Part shown: positions 7,048-61,480 of the stretch, one piece after another
Layout: every line of letters begins with the position of its first letter
How positions within the stretch are numbered: the stretch's first letter is position 1
Assembly (NCBI GenBank): GCA_013265495.1
Contig: MU057521.1
Coordinates: 1,376,335-1,440,334 of the forward strand
Length of the DNA stretch: 64,000 nucleotides
Direction: 5' to 3'
DNA from: Vicugna vicugna
Lineage: Eukaryota
Made by a program: the position numbers and the translations under genes
The notes under the pieces: generated by a model
What the model was told of the DNA's origin: nothing
Databases searched by the model: none
Seen by the model: the letters and a program-made list of their open reading frames with translations, nothing else

Positions 7048-7388
7048 GAAATGTGACTGGAAACAGTAACTCCACGTTTATTTCCAGCGGGCAGGTGATG
7101 AATTTCAAGGGCGACATCATCGTGGTCTACGTCAGTCAGAACTCGCAGGAGGGCCCGGCGGGCACGGGCGGCGGCGCCGGGGAGCCGGTGGGCCGCCCGG
7201 TGCAGGAGGAGAGCCCGCCGTGCTGCGACTCCTTTGCCGGCCTCGGGCCGCGCTTCCCGGACACGTGCACCGGCCTCGAGGTGGGCCCGGGGCTGCAGGA
7301 GCGCGGCGTCCCCGGGCCTGACAAGGCCTCGCGGCCCGTGCAGGAGCAGGGGGAGGCCGAGGCGGGCGCGCCCGGGGCGCGGCGCTGA
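7048..7388 (+). CDS. TNFRSF11A: TNFRSF11A (RANK) terminal coding exon, cytoplasmic tail
   Basis: Pyrimidine tract plus AG at 7046-7047 (ctctcttcctctccccttgtag|ga, phase 1). Translation (G)[35 protein letters not shown]...PVQEES...DSFAG...RPVQEQG...RR* matches the known RANK C-terminus, with the IVVY motif and two TRAF-binding PVQE motifs. TGA at 7386-7388. Confidence 0.97.
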
Positions 7389-7590
7389 GAGGGCGGGGAC
7401 CCACTGCGGTTCACCGCGCCCGTCGGAGCCGTGATGCCGCCGGGCGGGCGCCGACCTGCGGTGCGGGGCTTCCCGCCAGCCCTCTGCGCCGCGCACGTCC
7501 GGAGCCGCGATGCCACCTGGCGGCGCCCGCTGCGCACCTGCTCCTGCGCGGGGCCTGGGCTGGGGGGCGGGGCGGCGGCCACGATCTGAG
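7105..7590. promoter_or_regulatory. CpG island over the terminal exon and proximal 3'UTR
   Basis: Very high GC with dense CpG, against CpG-depleted flanks. Confidence 0.85.
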
Positions 7591-10074
7591 CCTTTATGCC
7601 CCTCCATTCGGTACATCTGAGTCCAATGACCTGGCGTTCTCTATCCACCTTGCTCTAAATAGAATCGGGGACTTTTTTTTTTTTTAAAAAGTACACTTGT
7701 TATTACTACTCACTGACATCCACAGTCGTGTATCAGCTAATTGCACAGATCCACTTTGCCCTCTTCAGTTGCCCCACTTTCTACCTCCTTTTATGGTTTT
7801 TCTCCTTTCCCTTTAACCTCCGCTCCACTCCATTATTATTTCATCAATCTTTTGTCTCTTTATGACACATGACGTTATGCTTGTCCTATTCTATTTGGGT
7901 CTGTATTCCCCCTCCCACATATTTGTATTTGTATTTCTCTTTCTCTCATAACATTTTTCTTGATCCTGGCCCGCTCTCCTTTTTTCCCTTGAAACCTAAG
8001 GATTTTCCTGAAAGTTCTCCTAGAGGTGATGGTCTTCTTTACATATGTTCTTTTGCACCCCTTCTCACAAGTAGATGCCTGTTTTGGTGATGGCTTGGGA
8101 GAGTGAGGGTCTGTACTAAGCACTTTTGGGAAAAGGCTAGAAATGTGAAGCCTGGGGAGAGGCTCAGGGAACCAGGGGAGGGACTTTACGTTTTTGAAAA
8201 TTTTTCTGAGTTCTCATTTTTCTAAAGGGTGAAAAAGAGGAAACTCCATTTTTGCACCTGAATGTTAGTTTGTGTCGGTCTCTAGGCAGCTCTAAGTGGC
8301 AATCTGTCGTCGTCCTCCTTTACCCAGTGGTTCATCCCCACGGGGTGAATGTATGTACCCGTTCCAGCAAAGGCATTCAGGCACTTGTGTCACTAAATCT
8401 CTAAAAATCCAAGTTGTTGCACTTGGCATTCTTACTCTTGGTGTTTCCCTGGAAGAGATGTGGAAAATGAAGAGGATGAGGGGATGGCTCGCACACAAAG
8501 TGAAAAGAAGGGGCCAGGGAAGTTCAGGAAAGAAAGAAAGAAGTTGAAATGTTATTATGCATTTTTTTCATTCTAAATAAAGACAGCATAAATGTGTTTA
8601 GGCAAGAGGCCTTATTTTCTTCCTAAGCAATTGTGTATCTATAATTTAGCTTTGTAGAGGTGGAAAATATTCCTGCTATTTTCCATCCATTTAAATTAAA
8701 AACCAAATCCTTATATTGTGAACTTAAGAAAATTTCTCATAGAGGTGCTTTTCTCTTAGCGTCAGTGCTCTTGTGAGGAAACATACAGCCTGAGTTAGAT
8801 TGAAAGGAATTACCTGGGATGTTCTAGCTGTTGTGGCCAGTGAGTGTTTGTTCTCCTCAAATATTAAAGTTAAATTACCTAAGCACATTAAAATTAATTT
8901 TGCAGACCTGCTAGGTTTTTAAGTGTGCTAATAGTTGTCACTGTCCGGACTTTAATGGCCACAAATCAGCTGAAGGGAATGATCACTGATCACTGGTTTC
9001 TCCCTGTTGGTTGCCTGTCTCTTGGAAACAATGGGATAGTAGCAGTCGATGATGATTTTTAATGGAGGACCAGAGGTAGCTCTATAATTTTTGGGGCTCC
9101 TTGGCTGACATGAAGAACTGCAGGAAATAACTGCACTGCCAGGATGACCCACTGGTGGGAATTTACTGTCTGTGCTGCTCTTTTAGTTAACATCCATCCA
9201 AAGAGAGATGCTAAAAAATGGAAGAAACCATTATACCTCTTAATATGGAATATATTAAACAAAGTATAGTTCGCAAAGTAGAAGGCTGAGCTAAAGACCC
9301 AAGTTTCTACTGTGACTGTCATTGTCTCACTGATACTACTTTGCCTTTCTGTGCTTTCTTTTTTTTTCCCCATAAAAAGGCACTAATGATAATTTTCGAC
9401 ACTTCCCCTACCTAGAGATGACAAAAGGATGCTACAGTGAATGTTAAGGTATCTTGAGCTCCTTAAAAGGTGCTAAATAAATACAGAAGAATCTCCTTTC
9501 AGAAAAAGGTGGTCTTCTTTCTCATACTGATTCCCTATTAATTCTAGATTGATCCAAAGACAATTAAATGATAGGAAATATATAGCAAATATAGGTCTGT
9601 TGTCTGTGTACTATAGAGATGTATATGACAAATGTAAACAGAATGAAATGAAGACAATGATGAAAAACTGTTTGGGGGATGTGGTAAAGAGATTGTGAAA
9701 CCCATATTTGACCATAAAAGGTTTTTTTCCCCCTGATTTGTTTAAACAAAGCTTTTTGTGAAATGGTGATCTGACTTCTTTCTGATCTCTGTGGTGTGCT
9801 GTGGTATCAAATGTTGGTTATGTGTCATGGATGGAACCTTCAACAAGAGTTGGGACAGAAAGTGCCCTGTTTTAACGCTATATCTACTGTTAGTCTCATA
9901 AGAAAATTCTTTAAAACACAAGTTGGCTGTGCAGTAAAAGAGAGTTGAAAGGGAAATGGAGTCTAGTGTTTTCTATCCACGTTTAATTCAGCTATCTGAA
10001 GAAGGAAGAATTAATTTCTTCTCCACCTGTAAGCTCAGAGAGCAGTTTGAATATGAAGTACTGGAACCTCCCTA

Positions 10075-10478
10075 TGGCAGGGCAATCTTGCTGTGTAACA
10101 AGCTACACCAAAACTCAGTGGTTGAAAACAACCGCCATTCATTTAGCTCCCAGTTCTGTGGGTTGGCTGAGCTTGGTTGGTTCTTTAGGCATGAGCAAGC
10201 CCGCATGCAGTCTGCAGGCTCGCTGGCTGGCTGGGGGTTGGCTGGGCTAGACTGAGCCCTCTCTACATGGCCCCTCACTATGCCCAGCAGACTAGCCTGG
10301 CCACCTTCTCACAGTGATGTCTGGGTTCCCAGAGAGCAGTAGAACCATTCTGTTGGCCAAAGCAAGACACAGGGCAGCCCAGATTCAAGGGCTGGGAAAA
10401 CAGTTACAGAGTGACATTGAGAGAGTGGTGGATACAAGGAGGGGAAGACTGGGGCCCTTCTTGCCAGCTCTCTACCAC
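10075..10478 (-). mobile_element. MaLR MLT1-type solo LTR
   Basis: MLT1 hallmarks gctgtgtaacaagctacaccaaaactcagtggttgaaaacaac and cattctgttggccaaagcaag; ends ctaccaca. Confidence 0.75.
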
Positions 10479-11639
10479 AGGGACATTGTTCATAATAAAA
10501 TGGTGCAGGGCAGAGTGCCTCTGGGAGCAGGAGAGGGGCCTCTCCCAGTGCCTAATAAGTGCTTCCTTCTATAGTGACCACATTCCTTTAATGCAGAGTA
10601 CAGTGAATTCTTACAAGTGAGAGACCCTCACATTCATATTTACATATTGAAATTCCTTCCAAATATCCATGTTTGGGGAACTGGGTCTCCTGTACTACTG
10701 CATTTCACTGGCACAGATCATGGAAAAGTGTGGATTTGTAAAGTCAAGAAAACTGGTGAGATCCTTTGGGTAGAGGCACCAACTACATAAACAAATAAAC
10801 GATGTCGTGTTCACCCTTTATGCTGATTCAACAAACTGTGGTAGGTACCAGGCAAAGGGTGAGTTTGAGCAAGAGTACTGTCTTTGTTGGAAGAGGCATA
10901 GTTTTGAAATGTTTATTCTTTGACGGTCTCTGATGGCAGATGACTTCCTTTGGCCATCTAATTTGGGGAGCTATGGGATGTTCTGGGCATGAGTTGCATA
11001 GGCCCCTTTTGGGAGAAGGGATAAAGAATTCAACAGCCTAAACATTCAGTGGATGAGTCATCATTTTTAGTTAGTGTACTTTTGATGTTTGGGCCCTGAG
11101 CATCCCTGAGAAAGGAGATGAAGGTAGCTGGAGAGTCCCAGAGAGTCTAGGGATGTCCTGCAGGGCTAGGGAAGACTGTGGACATTACTCTACTCCAGAG
11201 CACCAGGGAGGCTGCTGGGGAGGGGTTATCTGTGGAATTCCTGACCCCCCAGGACTATGCTGGTAAGCAGACTACCATGCAACTACTAAGCCTTGCCAAA
11301 AATATATGGGCAACTGAAATTGGGCAGGGGTGGGGCCAGCAGTGGGCAGAGGCATGTCAGGTAGTGTCACTGAAGCCAGTCTGTGAGGTACAGGGGAGCC
11401 GCAGATGCAGAAACCCCAGACCAGTACTCTCACAGCAGCCCCTACTAAGGCATTGTCTCCCTTGGTCAAACAGCCCAATATTCCCCAAAGTTTGAAAAAG
11501 AGAAGGATTTACTAAATTTCCAAGTGAGGATGGATGACTAAGTGACCTCTGGTGTGACCCTCTGTGACCTTCTCCACCATGGTTTCTCATGGCTGTTGAG
11601 AGTCTGACTTTCGGTCTCTCCACCTCACTACTCCAGCCA

Positions 11640-15934: not shown

Positions 15935-16407
15935 AATTGTGAAAACCTTTGTAGAGGTAAGGACTGTCTTTTCAAGGACATTTATAGAGGAAACCGTCTT
16001 GGAAGACAGAGAGAGTGTCTCCCTCCAGGGTAGAGGGCAGATTTGCTTGTTGCCCAGGGTAGTAAAGATGTCTCCCTCCAGGGCAAAAATTGGGCAGATT
16101 TGCTAGCAGTCCCTTATAAAGTCGAGGGCTCACTAAGCTCAGGGTTCCTCATCTGGGGAATGAATCCACCATGTGTACCCTGTAGACCTAGGACCACCTC
16201 CTTATCGCCTCTTCAGAATTTGGAGGGAGTGGGAAGCACAACTGATGTAAATGCAAAGCTCATGTTGTCCGACGTGCTGTGAGTAATTAAGTCCTCTGTC
16301 TCGGACCCAGGAGTCTGTGTCTTCTGCCGGCATCCACGAAACTGTGACAGGCTAAATCATTAGTCTGTAAGCAGGGTAAAATCTCAGACCTTTCACAGTT
16401 CTTGACA
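15935..16407 (+). mobile_element. MER21-like ERV LTR
   Basis: Internal duplicated tgtctccctccaggg..gggcagatttgct units and 3' end gggtaaaatctcagacctttcacagttcttgaca. Confidence 0.7.
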
Positions 16408-16548
16408 GGGTGTGGATGTATAATTTCATGAGACAGAGGTGGGTATCCAATCTGCAGAATATCCTCAATTTACTCCTTCAGCTCCACTCTGCATTCCTTT
16501 GTCTTGCTCTGCCCTGGGAGGCCAGGAGACTGATCTGCCAAAAAAGAA

Positions 16549-22167: not shown

Positions 22168-23077
22168 TGTTAGGGGGCAATCTTGTAACTCAGGCAACTG
22201 TGAATCCACCTCTACGCCAAAGGTTTGTCATTAACCATGGACAGCCCTCTCCACTCCAACCCCACCCATACCTCCCAGATAAATCACTTTCCAGGTAAGG
22301 ACTTCAGAGTTCCAGAAGTTTTAGGATTTGAAATAGTTTACCTTGGAATTCTTAATTCAGTTAGATTTTTGTCTCATAGCAGATGTTATATAAATATTTG
22401 ATAATTGAAGATATTCTCAATTTGCATAAATGTTTACACCATATTAAAGGAGATGAGAAGAGAAATGATATAATTACTGCAAGCTAATTGTACTAATTAC
22501 TCAGAGCATGACATATTCAGTGGTTTCCAAGGAGCAGAGAGAGGCCCCAAGTGCTGAGCTCTGAGGACTCAGGGTGCACAGGGGACCCAGCACAGGATGT
22601 GTGAGGTTGGGGAGCAACCAGGGTCCTTCACTGACAAATTCAGGAGGCAGCAGTACAGCTGAGATCTTCTTGGTCCCAGCTTCCGGGCCTGTCCCTGCAT
22701 CTTTTCTTCTGGTTCCTTCATCCACAGCTTCCTGCCCACAGGCTTGCTTGTCTGCCCAGTCGTCCCCTGCGTCCAAACCAGGTGGTGGGACCCACTACCC
22801 CTGGAGTCCTAGGAGAGATGGAACTCCTGAGCTGGCCTGAACTCAAAGGAGGTGGTTTTCCAGAAGCCATGTGGCATCTCCCAACCCTGGCCACCCTTAC
22901 CTGCCACCACTGTGCGTGGCAGCCCAGGTGTTTCCCACACTCAGCTTCTCTGCAGGGTTTTGCCTGGTGGGTTCTTTCTTACTGCCTCTGAAAGTCTTAA
23001 GTCCAAGTCACCTGGGAACCATTAGCAGAAAAAGAATTCTTCCAGAAGTCTGGCCTTAAGTAGCTAAACCTGGGTTA

Positions 23078-23440
23078 GCGTGCCCGCTGCAAGTTGTTAC
23101 GTAACTCACGGGCCCTAATGAAGCCTCCCCGCAGGCGGTGTGTAGGCGGGGTCGTCTCCTCCCTCATTGGCGCGGGCCTGGACCACGTGACTTGCCTCGG
23201 CCAATGTGCGCCGGCCGCGTGACCCAAGCAGAGGCTTGATAAACCTCACGTAGCGCCCGGGGCTTGCCCCGTGGAACGCTGCCGTCGCTGAGGGGGAAGC
23301 CGTGGCTCTTCTGCTGGAAGGGAAGTGCGGCGCCTGGCTGCGCGGCGGGACGTGCAGACGAGGCCTTCTTAGACCCCGCAGCCTCGTGAGGACCCCGCAG
23401 GAGACTGTCCAGCTGAGCCCAGACGGTGAGCAAATCCCGG
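23078..23440 (+). promoter_or_regulatory. Orphan CpG-rich promoter-like element
   Basis: Dense CpG. GTTACGTAAC 23096-23105, GC box 23145-23151, ATTGG 23166-23170, CACGTGAC 23184-23191, CCAAT 23201-23205. Confidence 0.6.
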
Positions 23441-23500
23441 TGGCTGTTTTAAGCTGATAAAATTTCAGGGTTTTTGTTACTCAGTGATAGATGGTTAAAC
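23290..23500 (+). mobile_element. MLT1-type LTR 3' half
   Basis: cagctgagcccagacggtgagcaaat...tgttttaagctgataaaatttcagggtttttgttactcagtgatagatggttaaac resembles the MLT1 3' terminus. Confidence 0.65.
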
Positions 23501-23529
23501 GCTGCCTTTGGTTAGCAGAATATCTTTTC

Positions 23530-23900: not shown

Positions 23901-24129
23901 GACACGTGCCCGCCTTGCCCCAACAGAGGGAGGGCGGGAGACAGAAGGCATAACGTTGTCTCCATAATAAATGCCTTTAAGCAAGGCAGCCATTTAATGT
24001 TCTTCATATCCAGGTGGTTTAAGCAAAGAGGTTGGAAATTGGGATCTTGGCAAGAGTGGCTGCTCCAGGCCTCTCTGTGCGCTGGATGCGGGTGGTCTGT
24101 GGGCAGCGGGAGAGGGTGGGCTACGATGC

Positions 24130-25965: not shown

Positions 25966-26097
25966 CCTTTTTAAAAATTTTACTTTACAGGAATGTTTTA
26001 TCTCTTCCTTCTAGTAGCAACAAATATTTCAAAGGAGATAAAATACTTCAAAGAAAGAGGACTCTGCATGAGGCAACTCTAAGTATTAGTCTGTGAT

Positions 26098-33109: not shown

Positions 33110-33580
33110 CATAGCAAGAGTAGTGGTCCCCTAAGATGCCCACATTCTAATCTCGGAACTGGAAATGTGACCTTCTATAGCAAAAGGGACTTTTTGGATG
33201 TGATGAAGTTGAGGACCATGAGATGGAGAATGTCTAGGCAAGCTCTAAGTGTGATCACAAGTGTCCTCATAAAGGAGAGTAGAGGAGGGTTTGACTACAG
33301 AAGAGAAGTCGACCTGATCTTGGAAGGAGATCCTGCAGTGATGTGCTTTAGGAAGGCACCACAAGCCAAGGAACATAGGCAACCTCTAGAAGCAGGAAAA
33401 AGTGAGGAAGCATTCTCCTGGAGGCTCCAAAAGGAATGCAGCCCTGCTGACACCTTGATTTTAGCCCAGTGAGACTTGTTTCAGACTTCTGACCTCCAGA
33501 ACTGTAAAAAAAAACACATTTGTGGTGTTTTAAGCCTTCAAATTCATGGTGATTTGTTATAGCAGCAAGAAACTAGTACA
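33110..33580 (+). mobile_element. MLT1D-like solo LTR
   Basis: gcagccctgctgacaccttgattttagcccagtgagac...ttctgacctccagaactgtaa...aactagtaca. Confidence 0.88.
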
Positions 33581-34385: not shown

Positions 34386-34878
34386 TGTATCTGTTTCCCA
34401 TTACTGCTGTAACAAAGGACCACAAACTTAGTGGCTTAGAAAAACACAGCTGTATGATGTTACAGTTATGGAGGTCAGAAATCTGAAACAGGTCTCACTG
34501 GGCTAAAATCAAGGTGTGGCCAGTTCCTAACGGAGGCTCGGCAGGAATCTGTCTCTGCCTACTTCAGTTTTTAGAAGCTGCCCACATTCCTTGCTTGTGG
34601 CCCCTCCTCCACCTGCAGCCCCAGCCATCGGGTCACTCCCACCTCTGCTCCTGTTGTCTCATCTCCTTCTCTGACTCCCAGTCTCCCACTTCTGTCTTCT
34701 ACTTCTGAGGGCCTTTGTGACCACATCCAGCCTGTCCAGCTCACCCGAGATGACCACCCCCACCTCAAGATCCTTAATCACATCCACTACGTCCTTTTTG
34801 CCCTGTGAGGTGACGCAGTCACAGGTTCCAGGGCTGAGGACGTGGACATCCTTGGAGAGCCGTCATTCTGCCTTCCAG
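34386..34878 (-). mobile_element. MLT1D-like solo LTR
   Basis: tgtatctgtttcccattactgctgtaacaaaggaccacaaacttagtggctta...tcactgggctaaaatcaaggtg. Confidence 0.88.
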
Positions 34879-37094
34879 TGCAAGTAGACTTACTAAGATG
34901 TTTTAAAATCTGCCTACGAAACGTCTGTTCAGAGAACCTTCTCGAGGGAGCCTAGTGTTACCACAGGTGCCTGGCATGTGCTAGTGAGTCAGGGTTTTGC
35001 TTCTTTCTCATGACTGTCTGTGTCCATTTGTTCACTCACGAGTCTTTCCAGTCGACAGTCCTCAAAAGCATCTGCTGAAGATGATCCCGGTGAAGTTCCT
35101 AAGGCTTCTCACAAAGGGCCTGAGGCTGAACAAGAGGTTGGCTAGCCTCCACCTTCCCTCCCCCAGGGTCCAAGGGCCAGCTGCTCTGTCCCTTACTAGA
35201 AAGAAAACAGTCTTATTTCTAGCCGATCAGAAACACACATGGCTTCCAGAGGATGGGGCCAGGCCTTTCCTTACTTTTCTATGAGTATCACCACAGACAG
35301 AGCCTCCCTCCATGGGCTCCTGAGAGGGTCCCTGCTCCCTTTTCTCCTTCCTTCCCCAGGATGTTGGCTGCGTTCCAGCAGCAGCCCACAGGGTCATGGG
35401 CACCATTCATCCTGCACCATCCAGGAAGGCAGGGCTCCGTGCCTCCCTGCTGCCTTGCTTGGCAAGAGTCATAAAGCTTTCTGGCTCCTCAGAGCAAGAC
35501 ATGAGCGAGACAAACAAGCCCTTCTTGCTAAGGTTGACCACTAAATATAGATTCTATTTTGCATGTCTGCCTAGCTTGGCTGTCTTTCCAAAACCCTTTC
35601 CTCACTGGGATGGGAGCAGAAGGAAGAGGGAGAGAAAATTCCACTCTCCAACAAACAGGAAGTCAAGTGAATAAATAATTGAATGGATTCATGAATAAAT
35701 GATTGCTCCAATGTCTTTAACTTACCACTATCTCATATGTCGTAAAAGACTGGAAACTTTGGCCAGAAGAATTTGCCTTTACTGCGGAGGTCGACCAACA
35801 CCAACATCGGCTTGCTTTTCCCCCCTCTGTCCGGTAGGTACCAGCCTTTCACCTCAACTTTGGCTTCTCCATATTCTCAAACCGAATGCACCAAGAGCTA
35901 AGTTTGACTACTGGAGCAGTCCATCTTCTCTCCTGGAATGCTGGCAAACAGAATTCCAAAAATGTCAATTTAGAAGGTTATTTCATAATGGATGCTCCAG
36001 CCATCTCAGTATATTTTCTCAGCTGTTAATTGTCAAGGGCTCCACATGACTTCTGCCAAAATCTTTTCATTACCACACCAGCCATAGTTCTGAATTTCAA
36101 TTAAAAGTCACACAGCATGCTGGCACCTCCCTGCGTAACATGATGGGTAGTAACTATCAGCCAGGCTAGCACGTGCTATAATGTTAAACCCCTGCCAGGA
36201 ATATTCTCCTGTGACCTTTTGGGGAAATTCTAGGTGTCTGAGCAAAATTAAAGAGTTACCTCTTTAAGGAAAAGACTCCTGGAAATAGTCTTCATGGGGA
36301 TCTCCTGGGAGTTGCCTGGGCGGTAATGATGCCACAATTAGACTAACCAAAGTACATTTCAAGGAGGATTTAATTGAATCGTTAAAAGCTGTGTTTCGAG
36401 AGAACAGAGTTCGCCCACCTGAAAATCACTTGGAGAAGGCAATGTCTACAGTCTGAGATGATTTGATAGGAGTCCTTCAGCGTAAGTAGAAATAGGGAAA
36501 AAATCCTCACCGTGATCACCTTCTACTAGGACTATGGATTTTTCACCCTAGATTGAAATCTTCAATGAGCATGGCTTCATCAGCTACCAATTTATTTGAT
36601 TGTCAACCTATGAAGACAGTGAAATCAATTACGTTGGCTGTAGCGATTAAGGTGTGTCAAGTCAGCGCTGACCTGTAACGACTACTTGTAACACTTACCA
36701 TCACATCCCCTTAGCATAGATGATACCCTCATTAATACCCAAACTCACATCCATGTCTGCCTAACAGCCAGCAGAAGTCGCCCAGTCAGCGCCCACACCT
36801 CAAGCTAATGCATCTCTCTTACCTCTTTCTTTAGTTTTTAGACATTTTTCTACGAATGTTGACAATTCTTCATTCATCAGTGTGACTAAGGAAGGATATA
36901 TGATGCATAAAATATAAAATCAGCAAAAATGTCATATTTTTGATCAGTTTTGGCGCTTAATGCTGTAAAGTGGATCTTTTAAGTGGGGGATTGACTTTAC
37001 AGAAAGAGTCAACATAAAGTGTTTACAAAGAAGCACTCACTGAGTCTTTGTTTATCTTGTACTTCATTTTACCAGGTTGCCAGGTAGGTAGCAT

Positions 37095-41992: not shown

Positions 41993-42082
41993 TTTCTTGT
42001 GGGTCAAATGTGTCTCCAAAAAGGTATGTTGAAGTCCTGTACCCCAGTACCTGGAATTGTGACCTTATCTGGAAATAAGATC

Positions 42083-42113
<31 letters not shown>

Positions 42114-42537
42114 ATACATGTATATATATATATTTTCAAGATATGAGTTAAGATGAGGTCACACTGGAGGAAAGTGAGCCCCTAATAAGGACTAGTGTCC
42201 CTATAAGAAGAGCAGAAGAGACACACAGAGTGAAATGCCACATGAAGACACCGGCATGCAGAGAGGGAAGATGACGTGAAGACACAGGGTGAGAACCGTG
42301 AGATGCTGAGGGAGAGACTGGAGTGTCTACAGGCTGAGGAACACCAGGGATGGTCAGCAACACCAGAAGCTGGGAGAAAGGCACATATCCTCCCCTAGTG
42401 CCTTCAGAGAGAGCATGACCCTGCTGACACGTTGATCCTGGACTTGAAGCCTCCAGAACTGGGAAAGAATAAATTTCTGTTGTTTCAAGTCACCAGTTTG
42501 TGGTACCTTATTAAGGCAGCCCTGGGAAATGAATAGA
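41993..42537 (+). mobile_element. MLT1B/C-like solo LTR with internal (TG)n
   Basis: ggtatgttgaagtcc...gcctccagaactgggaaagaataaatttctgttgtttcaagtcaccagtttgtgg. Confidence 0.88.
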
Positions 42538-43779: not shown

Positions 43780-43870
43780 TACTGCGAGAGGGTATAGCTC
43801 AGTGGTAGAGTGTGTGCATTCAATCCCCAGTACTTCTGTTAAATAAATAAATACATATATATATATTTTA
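43780..43870 (+). mobile_element. Internally deleted Vic-1-type tRNA-derived SINE
   Basis: gagggtatagctcagtggtagagtg..ttcaatccccagtac plus A-rich tail; TSD aagatc(c/a)ctgttaag at 43765-43779 and 43871-43885. Confidence 0.85.
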
Positions 43871-47975: not shown

Positions 47976-49399
47976 CCTTTTGTTCATTCATTCATTCACT
48001 CCATTCATTCATTCATTCACTTATTCGCTTATTTATTTACTACAGAAGTTGCAGCCCTCTCCCCAATTTCTTTGCAAGAAACAGTTTTAAAAGTGTTGTT
48101 ATACCTTGTTCAAGCAGGGTTAACAGGTTGTGGATATTTTTCTGTGGTTCCATAGGACAGTTTCATAGAATTGAAGTCACTCAAGTTCGCACCTCTGTCT
48201 ACAGTTGCCCCAGTTAACATTTCATGCCCGAATTGGAAAGAAAGGCATGTAGCTCAGTTCTCTCCAGTTGACAGGCAAATTTATCTCCACGTAGGACATT
48301 TATTAAAGGATAAACAACACGAATGTGCTCATTCAGGCCTAAGTATATAATATTAAACTCCACAGGAACCACAGTTGTTTAAGAACTTTGACCAACAAAA
48401 GGTTACGCTGGGAGGAGTGTTTGTTGCATCACTAACGTTTAGAATTGCCAGGACGCGTGATAGCGAAAGGCAGACCGACTCATACATGGTTTTGCCAGCA
48501 GTTTAAAATTCTCTGCAATGTGCTCTCCCCTCATTCCTACACCAGGCGACTGCTCCCACTTGTCTGCCTTTTAACTCACAACCTTTAGCCAGAAAACTCA
48601 CCAGCCTCAGCCCTGGGGCGTAGGTCTCAGGAACCTCCCATTCTGCTCCCCAGACCCAGTAACTTCTTACTGTCGGGCTGATTTCATTACACAGGATTAA
48701 AATCGATTTTAAAACAAAAACCCTGCAGGTGGATTTTCTCCTACTCAAGCTACCGCCGTTTTCCTGGGAAGGGACCCACGGTGTCAGAGTCCAGCTCCAG
48801 GCCCCTAGCCTCAGGGCCTACCTCCCAAAGCCAGCCCTGCCCAGGGAATGCGGACTCCCCTCCAGCTCCCTGGATGTTCTCGTTTTCCTGGTACCCAGAA
48901 AGTGGGCTTCTCGTCCCTCTTAAGCCACTAATTTGGGATCCTGGTGAAAATGACTTTTCCTCCTGCTTCCTCAGAAGCAAACGTTTAACCGAGTCATTTC
49001 TAAGGCCCCTGCTAGTGTCCTCTGGGCCTGGCCGCGAGGTCCAATGACCTTGACCGGCTGTCCTGGGTGCCTGCAGGCGGTGCTGACGCGGGGAAAGGTC
49101 AGCTGCTGGCACCGCCTGTCGCAGGCTGTTCCTGGTACCCCATCCCCGGGGCACTGCAGCCTTTTCAGACTGTCACCTTTCCTTGTTTGGCATCTCAGAA
49201 TGATTGGCCCTGGAGACTTTCAGATACCTCTTTAACAATCAGAGCCGGATTTCCAGAGCAGCGCCCTTGGCCTGCAAACGTGCTTATTTACCATGGCGTT
49301 GCCCTTCGATTGCGCAGGAACGATTGCTAAAAGACGACTCCCGCTCTTTCCCCGCCAACGCTTCCACCCCATACATGCCTCACACCAGCCCGTGTTGGA

Positions 49400-49530
49400 A
49401 GGTAGGCATGGAATCTCACTCCCATTTTAGAGATGGGGAAACTGAGATGCCAAGGGTTGAAGTTACTCATGGTGGCACATGCCGCTGCTCTTAGGGGCAG
49501 AGCTGGGACTAAAACACTGCCACCCCCCAT
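49400..49530 (-). mobile_element. MIR
   Basis: cccattttagagatggggaaactgag. Confidence 0.7.
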
Positions 49531-50669
49531 TTCTTACTCACTTATCCACCCCCCACTCCAATGAGTTTATTAGCTCGGGCCTGGCCTAAACCCAGTAATC
49601 CTGGTTACACAACCAATACCTAGCACGCACTCGGCTGGAGAGTATAAACAGATGGGGTGCCTCGCCTCTAAGAATTCACTGTTTAGAAATCACAAGACAT
49701 GTATGTTGAATATCAAGATGTCTTTAGAAATATGAGAAAATAGTCATAACATAGAAATAGCTTGTTTCTATGACTTTATAAATTTTTACATCAAGATGTA
49801 AAAATCAGTTACCTATATCTGGCAACAACATATTTAGGAAATGGCCCCTCAAAAGCTATATACCAGGGATGACAGATTTGCAGCACACGCCCTGAGAGCC
49901 CCTGGGGGTGTCTGTGGCAGATGGTGGCTTTATCCTGGCTCTCTTCCCACTAAGCACCCAGATGCAGCCTCAGAATCATTCCTAACACAGCATTCTGCTC
50001 AATCACACATCTTCTCACCAGATTTCAACTGGATTTGCCATCCCTGCTACAAATTTTAGGCTTATTATTGTAGGAAATGTGAAATGAGTGAAATGTGGGT
50101 GATTTGCCCTTTCAGGCGGCTGCTCTGTGGTCCAGTTCTCTTTTGGCCACCTGTGTGTCCTCCCAGCTACCCCAGACAAATGCTAGGGTCAATGACGTGC
50201 CAGGAAGTGGATAACCATAGTTTGCAACAGAAGTTACACACCTGAGATGTAGAAAACATTTGCAGGAGTACCAGCGTTTTACCATGGAAGTGATTTATTT
50301 GCAAGGTACTCCTTCCCGCCACCTCACACCCCATGCAGCATTCCTGGGGCAGGTGTTCTCTGTAAGAATCCCCATCAGATGATTCTGATGTGCCCCACCC
50401 CCTTGAGAATAGCAGCTTGAGCAATTATTTCTCGGAGGTATTTACCATTTCTCAGAGGATTGAGTCTTGAAGATTGAGTCAGATTGCTTAGAAATTGTTC
50501 ATAGGGAAACCTCAGCCATAGGAGTAAGTGATGCAGGAGATACTTTGAGCACCAGCTCTTTATCCCCTTCCATGGCATCTACTCTCTAACCTTTTAGGTG
50601 AGTCTCACTGTCAACGTTAGGTAATTCCGGAAGGACCTGAAAGGATCCTTGAGCTCCGTGCTGCATAGA

Positions 50670-51005
50670 AATGTGATGTCCTCCCAGAACCTCAGAATGT
50701 AATTAAAGAAAAGGTCAAGATTATAGGACTCAGGTGGGCTCTAAAACCAATGCATGTATCCTCATAAGAGAAACACACAGACGGTGGCCACATGTTAGGG
50801 TTATAAGCCGGGAATGCCGAAGATTGTGAGCAACTGCCAAGAAGAGACGAGGAAGGGTTTTCCCCTAGAACCGTCCGAGGGAGCGTTGCCCTGCCAACAT
50901 CTTGAGTTTTGACTTCTGGCCCTAGAACTGTGAGAAAATACGTTTGTTATTTTAAGCCACCCAGTTTGTAGTGATTTGGTGCAACAAACTCAGGGAATGA
51001 TTACA
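50670..51005 (+). mobile_element. MLT1 LTR, apparently nested in an older ERVL-type LTR (ending about 51081)
   Basis: gacttctggccctagaactgtgagaaaata...ttaagccacccagtttgtagtg, followed by ctcaggctctgctcttggg...ccaggctaagaca. Confidence 0.7.
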
Positions 51006-60504: not shown

Positions 60505-61480
60505 GGGCAAACAACTTAAAAATTAAAATGAGCAAATGATATGAACACAAAAGGATTCCTAGAGGTCACACCAATGGACAATAAACACAAACATGTATAC
60601 TAAAATTAGTAGTTAGGGACATGCACATTAAAACCTCTCAGATTAACAAAACTAAGTCTGATATTTCTGAGCTGATGGAGCTGATGGAGCTGATGGGGCT
60701 GTGGGGTAGTGGGAACCAGAAGAGACAGCTCTCTCAAAGAGCAGATGGGTGACATCTAGAAACGTGAATGCCAGGCAGACCTTTTGATCACAGCTATATA
60801 GAGACCCAAAGGAATTTGCACAGGATTATGTACAAGAATATATGTTGCATCATTGTTTTTAATAATAAAATGCTAGAAACTGCCTAAATATTCATCCTTA
60901 GAGACTGGATAAATAAATGGTCTGTACACATGAAGGAGTGTTAAATAGCAGCAAAAATGAACTTGAGCTGCTTGTTCAACATGAATAACTTTCATGGACA
61001 TCATGTGGAACAAAAAAGTTGTAGAAAGAAGCATTCAGTATCCTTATAAAAGTTAAAAAAACATGGGAAGAAATGCTGTATTTTGTTTAGGGATACAAAC
61101 ATGTAGCAAAGTATAAAGAACTGCATGAGGGGAGGGTATAGCTCCGTGGTAGTACACGTGCTTCGCATGCACAAAGTCTTGGGTTCAAGCTCCAGGCTCT
61201 CCATTAAAAAAAAATATATGAATAAATAAAACTAATTACCTCCCCCGCCAAAACAAACAAACAAACAAACAAAACTTTTTTAAACAATGAAAAATACATG
61301 GGAATGATGGACACTAAATTATGAATAATTGTTGTTTCTGGGTACAGGGGTGTGAAGGCATAAAGAGAAGGGCATAATAATGAGGAAAAGGCTCACTCTG
61401 TTATGTTTAATAAGCTGCTGAGGGTATACCTTTTCACGTATCTGAAATATTTCATAGTACAAACTTAATGAAACAAAAGG
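60505..61480 (+). mobile_element. Old L1 (L1ME-type) 3' region
   Basis: ctagaaactgcctaaatattcatc...actggataaataaatgg; interrupted by a SINE. Confidence 0.7.
61129..61275 (+). mobile_element. Vic-1-type tRNA-derived SINE (camelid)
   Basis: ggggagggtatagctccgtggtag (A box) ...gggttcaagctcc (B box), followed by poly(A), ctaattacctcccc and an (AAAC)n tail. Confidence 0.85.

Follow-up and report, generated by a model that had tools for sequence, protein, structure and literature searches.

A CpG island in Vicugna vicugna that most likely coincides with a solo MLT1 LTR, and its possible use as a promoter

How does a dense patch of CpG come to lie in intergenic DNA of Vicugna vicugna, and does it start a transcript? 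The question is raised, in the 64,000-nucleotide stretch of DNA analysed here (the window), by positions 23078-23500, which hold 36 CpG in 423 bp at a GC content of 62% and an observed/expected (o/e) CpG ratio of 0.88, between CpG-poor flanks (4 CpG and o/e 0.11 in the 500 bp upstream; 12 CpG and o/e 0.38 in the 500 bp downstream). The patch qualifies as a CpG island (at least 200 bp, GC above 50%, o/e of at least 0.6). Its peak 350-bp stretch carries 34 CpG, compared with a median of 4 and a 95th percentile of 10 among 182 tiles of the 64-kb window, and it ranks second in density after the last exon of the gene that we take to be RANK (57 CpG per 350 bp). That gene, whose peptide fits RANK, ends with a TGA stop at 7386-7388, 15,690 bp from the island; the last exon and the start of the 3' untranslated region carry a strong CpG island of their own (7049-7600; 75 CpG, o/e 0.98). 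The patch at 23078-23500 gave no Rfam match and contains no credible coding ORF, the largest frame being a stop-to-stop frame of 121 codons on the minus strand. An initial annotation had described about 350 bp of dense CpG, 15 kb beyond the RANK stop and without a recognisable gene, and our measurements agree with it on all of this. By pig gene order (PMC12189728), the next gene is ZCCHC2, which lies beyond the window.

The same annotation pictured the patch as a separate promoter fused to half of an MLT1-like LTR. Our comparisons point to a simpler anatomy, in which the island is most likely a single whole solo MLT1 LTR of F-H type. The elements concerned are as follows:

23070-23500, plus strand: probable solo MaLR LTR, MLT1 F-H type; 5' end uncertain, 3' end near 23490-23500
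23079-23438, no strand: CpG island core with 36 CpG, within the LTR limits
23432-23500, plus strand: AT-rich 3' tail of the LTR, without AATAAA
10075-10480, minus strand: comparison copy, a CpG-decayed old MLT1 LTR, 2.7-3.1 kb beyond the RANK stop

The MLT1-like tail was borne out: positions 23405-23500 match three other MaLR LTRs of the window at their 3' ends, with scores reached by 10, 8 and 0 of 2000 shuffles, and the summed score (324, against 193.5 ± 23 in shuffles) was reached by none of 2000, while a fourth candidate tail at 48840-48980 was equalled in 73 of 2000. The 5' part of the island is unmatched by the type of those three tail-matching copies (two were tested). Homology to the copy at 10075-10480, on the other hand, continues upstream through the motif cluster, which argues against a half LTR fused to a separate promoter. 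This copy was spotted by eye ahead of the block tests, and the ranking of tiles is therefore the fair test of the relationship: with the annotated interval 23078-23500 as the query, it was the best of 490 tiles, with an excess of 76.8 (median, 4.1; standard deviation, 16.0; runners-up, 72.2 and 63.4). It was also the sole non-self match of the island in an nhmmer search of the window (E 0.12, covering island positions 23269-23486), and the reverse query with the copy recovered the island tail only (E 9.4). Under three gap settings, 3-14 of 500 shuffles scored as high as the alignment of the whole island with the copy; for the E-box/CCAAT block (23154-23204) the figure was 5-16 of 1000 and for the tail block 3-18 of 1000. 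The match is weak in the middle block (18-500 of 1000) and not significant for 23000-23230 taken whole (486-834 of 1000). Blocks 23154-23204 and 23273-23325 and the tail are collinear with the copy, and 172 of 278 aligned columns are identical (62%, against 56-59% in three runner-up alignments). The pattern of CA/TG partners of the island CpGs is the same in the runner-up alignments as in the copy. These homology statistics are modest. The MLT1F/F2/H consensus also appears collinear over the whole island, including the TGATAAA region, which we use as a lead only; with this lead included, the motif block and the middle are very probably homologous to MLT1.

No close second copy that could serve as a partner LTR was found in the 64-kb window by blastn or by the tile and nhmmer scans, so the element stands as a solo LTR. 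From what is known of the family, the LTR is about 100 million years old. No target-site duplication was detected at the island; its loss is expected at such an age, and its absence at the 5' end also suits the anatomy of the initial annotation, in which a CpG promoter of the host, not of LTR origin, occupies 23078-23360 and adjoins an MLT1 3' half that supplies the donor. The same can be said of the 5'-most 75 bp (23078-23153, with the palindrome and the GC box), which have no significant homologue in the window. We nevertheless consider a host promoter very improbable, because an MLT1 copy matches blocks 23154-23204 and 23273-23325 in the same order and because the spacing of E-box and CCAAT is that of the MLT1 module. 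A search of plasmid sequences returned one 39-bp match (E 0.4), a search of phages returned none, and a motif scan for other MLT1 copies gave no hit in viral contigs. Ten motif matches in metagenome contigs were rejected as chance; they lie in microbial-looking DNA without flanking homology.

The subfamily name F-H is presumed, in part from the likely human MLT1H orthologue of the comparison copy. Position and length suggest that this orthologue is probably represented by three human MLT1H pieces in TNFRSF11A, 421 bp in total, in the rows of Table S6 of PMC5538554 that are named TNFRSF11A or ZCCHC2; a list of MLT1 subfamilies is given in PMC5753468.

A whole MLT1 LTR of this age would be expected to be poor in CpG, as are the further MaLR solo LTRs of the window, which serve as controls:

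33130-33580, plus strand: CpG-poor MaLR solo LTR
34390-34880, minus strand: CpG-poor MaLR solo LTR
41995-42535, plus strand: CpG-poor MaLR solo LTR
50660-51005, plus strand: CpG-poor MaLR solo LTR

We take these four to be of MLT1A-D type. The CpG o/e of five other MaLR copies in the window is 0.09, 0.10, 0.15, 0.25 and 0.46, against 0.88 in the island, and their GC content is 44-55%, against 62%; AATAAA is missing in four of the five comparison copies and retained only at 42468-42473, so its absence from the island tail carries little weight. MaLR LTRs are described as CpG-depleted (PMC5538554), and long-term retention of CpG requires low germline methylation (PMC12582260). The difference in o/e between the island and the other old copies thus points to a long-term lack of germline methylation, and the island, with CpG retention as the one indicator, is probably hypomethylated in the germline. 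The initial proposal of a separate promoter that has stayed unmethylated in the germline therefore stands in part: this is the best explanation of the CpG excess in so old a MaLR element, but the promoter would not be separate from the LTR. Binding of USF, NF-Y and SP factors together with promoter use would most simply account for the hypomethylation. The CpGs (23079-23438) are confined within the LTR limits, which we count in favour of the whole-LTR reading.

The GC difference from the other copies would also fit an excess of CpG and GC produced by GC-biased gene conversion at an old hotspot, or by passive escape from methylation, in a whole LTR that is functionless now. Mismatches to the comparison copy favour strong over weak bases by 52:28, a ratio confounded by composition. 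Such an origin seems improbable to us, since the rare motifs of the island are exactly those of active MLT1 and the five other MaLR copies in the window are CpG-poor. In being short, CpG-rich and intergenic, the island resembles orphan CpG islands (PMC12582260); it differs from them in its LTR make-up, which is rare (LTRs contribute 1.3% of human CpG-island bases and 0.2% of the bases of CpG islands at transcription start sites), and its core of about 360 bp falls below the 400-bp cutoff of that study.

Elsewhere in the window, a weaker CpG patch at 49000-49400 (21 CpG, o/e 0.62) lies directly past an MLT1-like tail near 48920-48945; the tile at 48550-49400 was the runner-up in the homology scan and is possibly an old LTR beside an unmethylated site. 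An LTR-like element at 15950-16410 on the plus strand has a donor-like GTGAGT near 16279, and at 43786-43850 and 61133-61230 there are two short SINE-like copies of tRNA origin that end in A-rich tails.

Whether the island LTR could still be bound and used depends on its motifs, which in order are:

23096-23105, no strand: palindrome GTTACGTAAC, with core TTACGTAA
23143-23152, plus strand: GC box TAGGCGGGGT, a variant decamer
23166-23170, minus strand: second CCAAT box (ATTGG), 13 nt from the E-box, overlapping TTGGCGCG at 23167
23183-23191, no strand: USF-type E-box, CACGTGAC at 23184 (GTCACGTGG on the minus strand)
23201-23205, plus strand: CCAAT box, 11 nt after the E-box with centres 16.5 bp apart, forming the MLT1 USF/NF-Y module
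23201-23219: CCAAT-N9-CCGCG, ERSE-like with one mismatch
23237-23243, plus strand: TGATAAA, a putative TATA-like or GATA site, 36 nt past the start of CCAAT

Every motif listed in the initial annotation lies where it had been placed, the GC box being a variant and not the GGGCGG hexamer. The chance baseline was taken from 3000 dinucleotide shuffles. Against it, only three motifs are rare, all of them chosen after the sequence was inspected: the arrangement CACGTG-N10-12-CCAAT occurred in a single shuffle (and in none of 149 other tiles), GTCACGTG in 9 and the TTACGTAA core, which we take to be a PAR-bZIP/NFIL3-type site, in 5. Counts for the other classes were 302 for the GC-box decamer, presumably of the SP/KLF class, 234 for WGATAA and 839 for G|GTRAG. 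The palindrome, the E2F-like site TTGGCGCG and the ERSE-like match had been offered as meaningful signals; any perfect 10-bp palindrome arose in 1147 of the 3000 shuffles, the E2F-like class in 1177 and an ERSE with one mismatch in 47, at or near chance, and these readings were dropped. The resemblance of CCAAT-N9-CCGCG to the ERSE (CCAAT-N9-CCACG, ATF6/NF-Y) breaks down in the CCACG half, where the mismatch departs from the exact consensus, and the island carries no other sign of ER stress. The palindrome, the E2F-like site, the ERSE-like match and the donor thus add little. The DUX4 motif TAAYYYAATCA is absent from the plus strand of the island, and the motif strings of the island were not found in print in the open-licence literature searched.

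The pair formed by E-box and CCAAT appears to be a property of the family. NF-Y-USF site pairs within repeats fall nearly all in MLT1 (PMC3431495), NF-Y binding at MLT1 and LTR12 is accompanied by an E-box at -12/-11 (PMC3730095), and MLT1K has its E-box and CCAAT at a centre-to-centre distance of 16/18 bp (PMC12065363). The pair described here has the same orientation, E-box then CCAAT, as the USF1/2 and NF-Y module of human MLT1 in these studies; the human module is found mainly in MLT1J/K, at sites that are mostly unmarked or enhancers, whereas the copy in the island is a CpG island whose module is known by sequence. The place of the E-box is decayed in the copy at 10075-10480, while the island has a perfect CACGTG, and this optimal state beside a decayed sister copy is suggestive. 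Since the LTR inherited both the USF/NF-Y pair and the 3' donor from its family, neither counts as independent evidence for a selected host promoter.

Most NF-Y-bound MLT1 loci lack marks or look like enhancers, few are promoters, and 58% make eRNA (PMC12065363); orphan CpG islands, too, can act as enhancers (PMC12582260). Accordingly, the island might be a whole, unmethylated, USF/NF-Y-bound LTR that acts as an orphan-island enhancer of RANK or of the next gene, or merely an open site with short unstable RNAs, its donor being an unused relic. The CCAAT boxes on both strands that flank the E-box and the unremarkable donor would suit such a role, which we think unlikely, though credible: the TATA-like site and the donor are spaced as for a first exon, and the RNA word shares would correspond to roughly a third of the stretch, as shares that carry no placement.

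It is plausible that the LTR acts as a plus-strand promoter whose first exon ends at 23425, with two predicted features:

23267-23425, plus strand: predicted first exon, ATG-free and about 160 nt long, its start placed about 30 nt past TGATAAA
23426-23431, plus strand: splice-donor-like GTGAGC (CG|GTGAGC, 23425/23426), where the family carries its donor, close to the LTR 3' end

The donor is located at 23425/23426, as had been annotated, and three other MaLR copies have their GT at the position of the island GTGAG. It matches U1 at 6 of 11 positions, a score reached by 601 of 3547 plus-strand GT sites in the window. The first plus-strand AATAAA lies at 23966, and 17 strict acceptor candidates for a second exon are predicted downstream, the first at 26014. 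MaLR donors are located near the LTR 3' end and are lost with age, and MLT LTRs provide 252 human and 125 bovine 5' exons (PMC5538554); MLT1-initiated spliced transcripts in testis include MLT1B-PPCS, MLT1E1A-NT5C1B and an MLT1C-lncRNA (PMC3836709). With the MaLR "promoter platforms" of these two studies the island shares a solo LTR, a promoter (putative in the island), a predicted transcription start, a donor near the 3' end and the lack of an acceptor; the platforms are CpG-depleted and transcribed in oocytes, embryos and testis, whereas the island is CpG-rich and known from sequence. The promoter activity of old MLT1 copies is weak and dispersed, and transcription starts derived from transposable elements are usually CpG-poor (PMC12963367). 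The polarity of the LTR, the 11-nt module, the TATA-like site and the family donor all indicate the plus strand, and the GC skew is slightly positive (0.08), which is not decisive. A bidirectional or mainly minus-strand promoter, with a transcript toward the RANK 3' end, is extremely improbable in our view, even though a minus-strand CCAAT and the palindromic E-box are 13 nt apart, a good minus-strand donor match (9 of 11) is present at 22900 and the 1 kb left of the CCAAT contains no minus-strand poly(A) hexamer.

An RNA look-up covered 24 runs with 51 sampled words, and 18 runs contain part of 23050-23520, as shares that give no position or strand. Six raw-read runs with the same species label were set aside because they look targeted or amplified. 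Six runs of unstated kind, with word shares of 0.82-1.00, are probably DNA, one of them maybe from the source sample. Eight further runs were counted as no evidence (seven at 0.10 and one at 0.06, the recurring value of 5 words being odd). Four runs from three studies (X1-X4) have shares of 0.22-0.33; X3 is recorded as RNA-seq with a reproductive system label, and for X1, X2 and X4 an RNA origin is a guess. The exon at 23267-23425 predicts a share of 0.29 of 31-mers, and DNA of a relative at 3.5-4% divergence predicts 0.28-0.33, so that the four shares fit a first exon of about 160 nt and, equally, the DNA of a related species; we treat them as a lead. Cattle RANK presumably lies on chromosome 24. 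The bovine co-option table of PMC5538554 has no MLT row for the locus among 11 chr24 rows and thus no record of its use in cattle oocytes, TNFRSF11A, ZCCHC2 and MLT1F go unmentioned in the seven supplements of PMC12963367 that were searched, and the open-licence literature yielded no description of the element or of a camelid transcript between TNFRSF11A and ZCCHC2. In rodents, row 1960 of Table S5 in PMC5538554 records an ORR1D1 MaLR LTR as the full 5' exon of Zcchc2, with very low oocyte expression, and the neighbouring gene thereby offers a separate instance of a first exon supplied by a MaLR element.

Our combined results are consistent with a whole solo MLT1 LTR (about 23070-23500, plus strand) that is still active, staying unmethylated and serving as the promoter of a spliced plus-strand transcript, a reading for which we hold belief and doubt to be evenly balanced. 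The island would have kept the inherited E-box/CCAAT module in its optimal form; USF at 23183-23191 and NF-Y at 23201 would maintain the LTR in an open state, free of methylation in the germline, with assistance from an SP/KLF factor at the GC box (23143) and perhaps from a bZIP factor at 23097, and in an open, unmethylated LTR the CpGs would be spared from decay. TGATAAA would act as a TATA-like site and direct a plus-strand start about 30 nt on, near 23267. The first exon, some 160 nt long and free of ATG, could then be spliced from the LTR donor at 23426 to downstream exons, and the product would be a lncRNA or, less likely, the 5' exon of the next gene. Factor binding, start site and splicing are each put forward tentatively, at or a little below that point of balance.

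The island resembles a co-opted MaLR promoter or an orphan CpG island, both known kinds of element; homology within the window supports its MLT1 membership, and its role as a promoter is putative. MaLR LTR promoters are already well known, and single new copies are of little weight. What makes this one noteworthy is that old MaLR LTRs are normally CpG-poor and that LTR sequence is strongly depleted in promoter CpG islands (PMC12582260); moreover, a decayed sister copy 13 kb away provides an internal control, and the site lies beside RANK and upstream of ZCCHC2.

There is a slim possibility that, within a single mammalian lineage, the LTR turned into a true CpG-island promoter from which a long transcript runs toward ZCCHC2 in the germline. 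Such a transcript might supply an alternative first exon, or its transcription over the ZCCHC2 CpG island in oocytes might lead to lineage-specific maternal methylation. LTR-initiated units that lay down maternal methylation have been described in rodents and pigs. If true, this would be one of the rare cases of a transposon giving rise to a CpG island, and a datable one; and if the island is unmethylated and transcribed, it would cleanly illustrate the emergence of a CpG island within a transposon.
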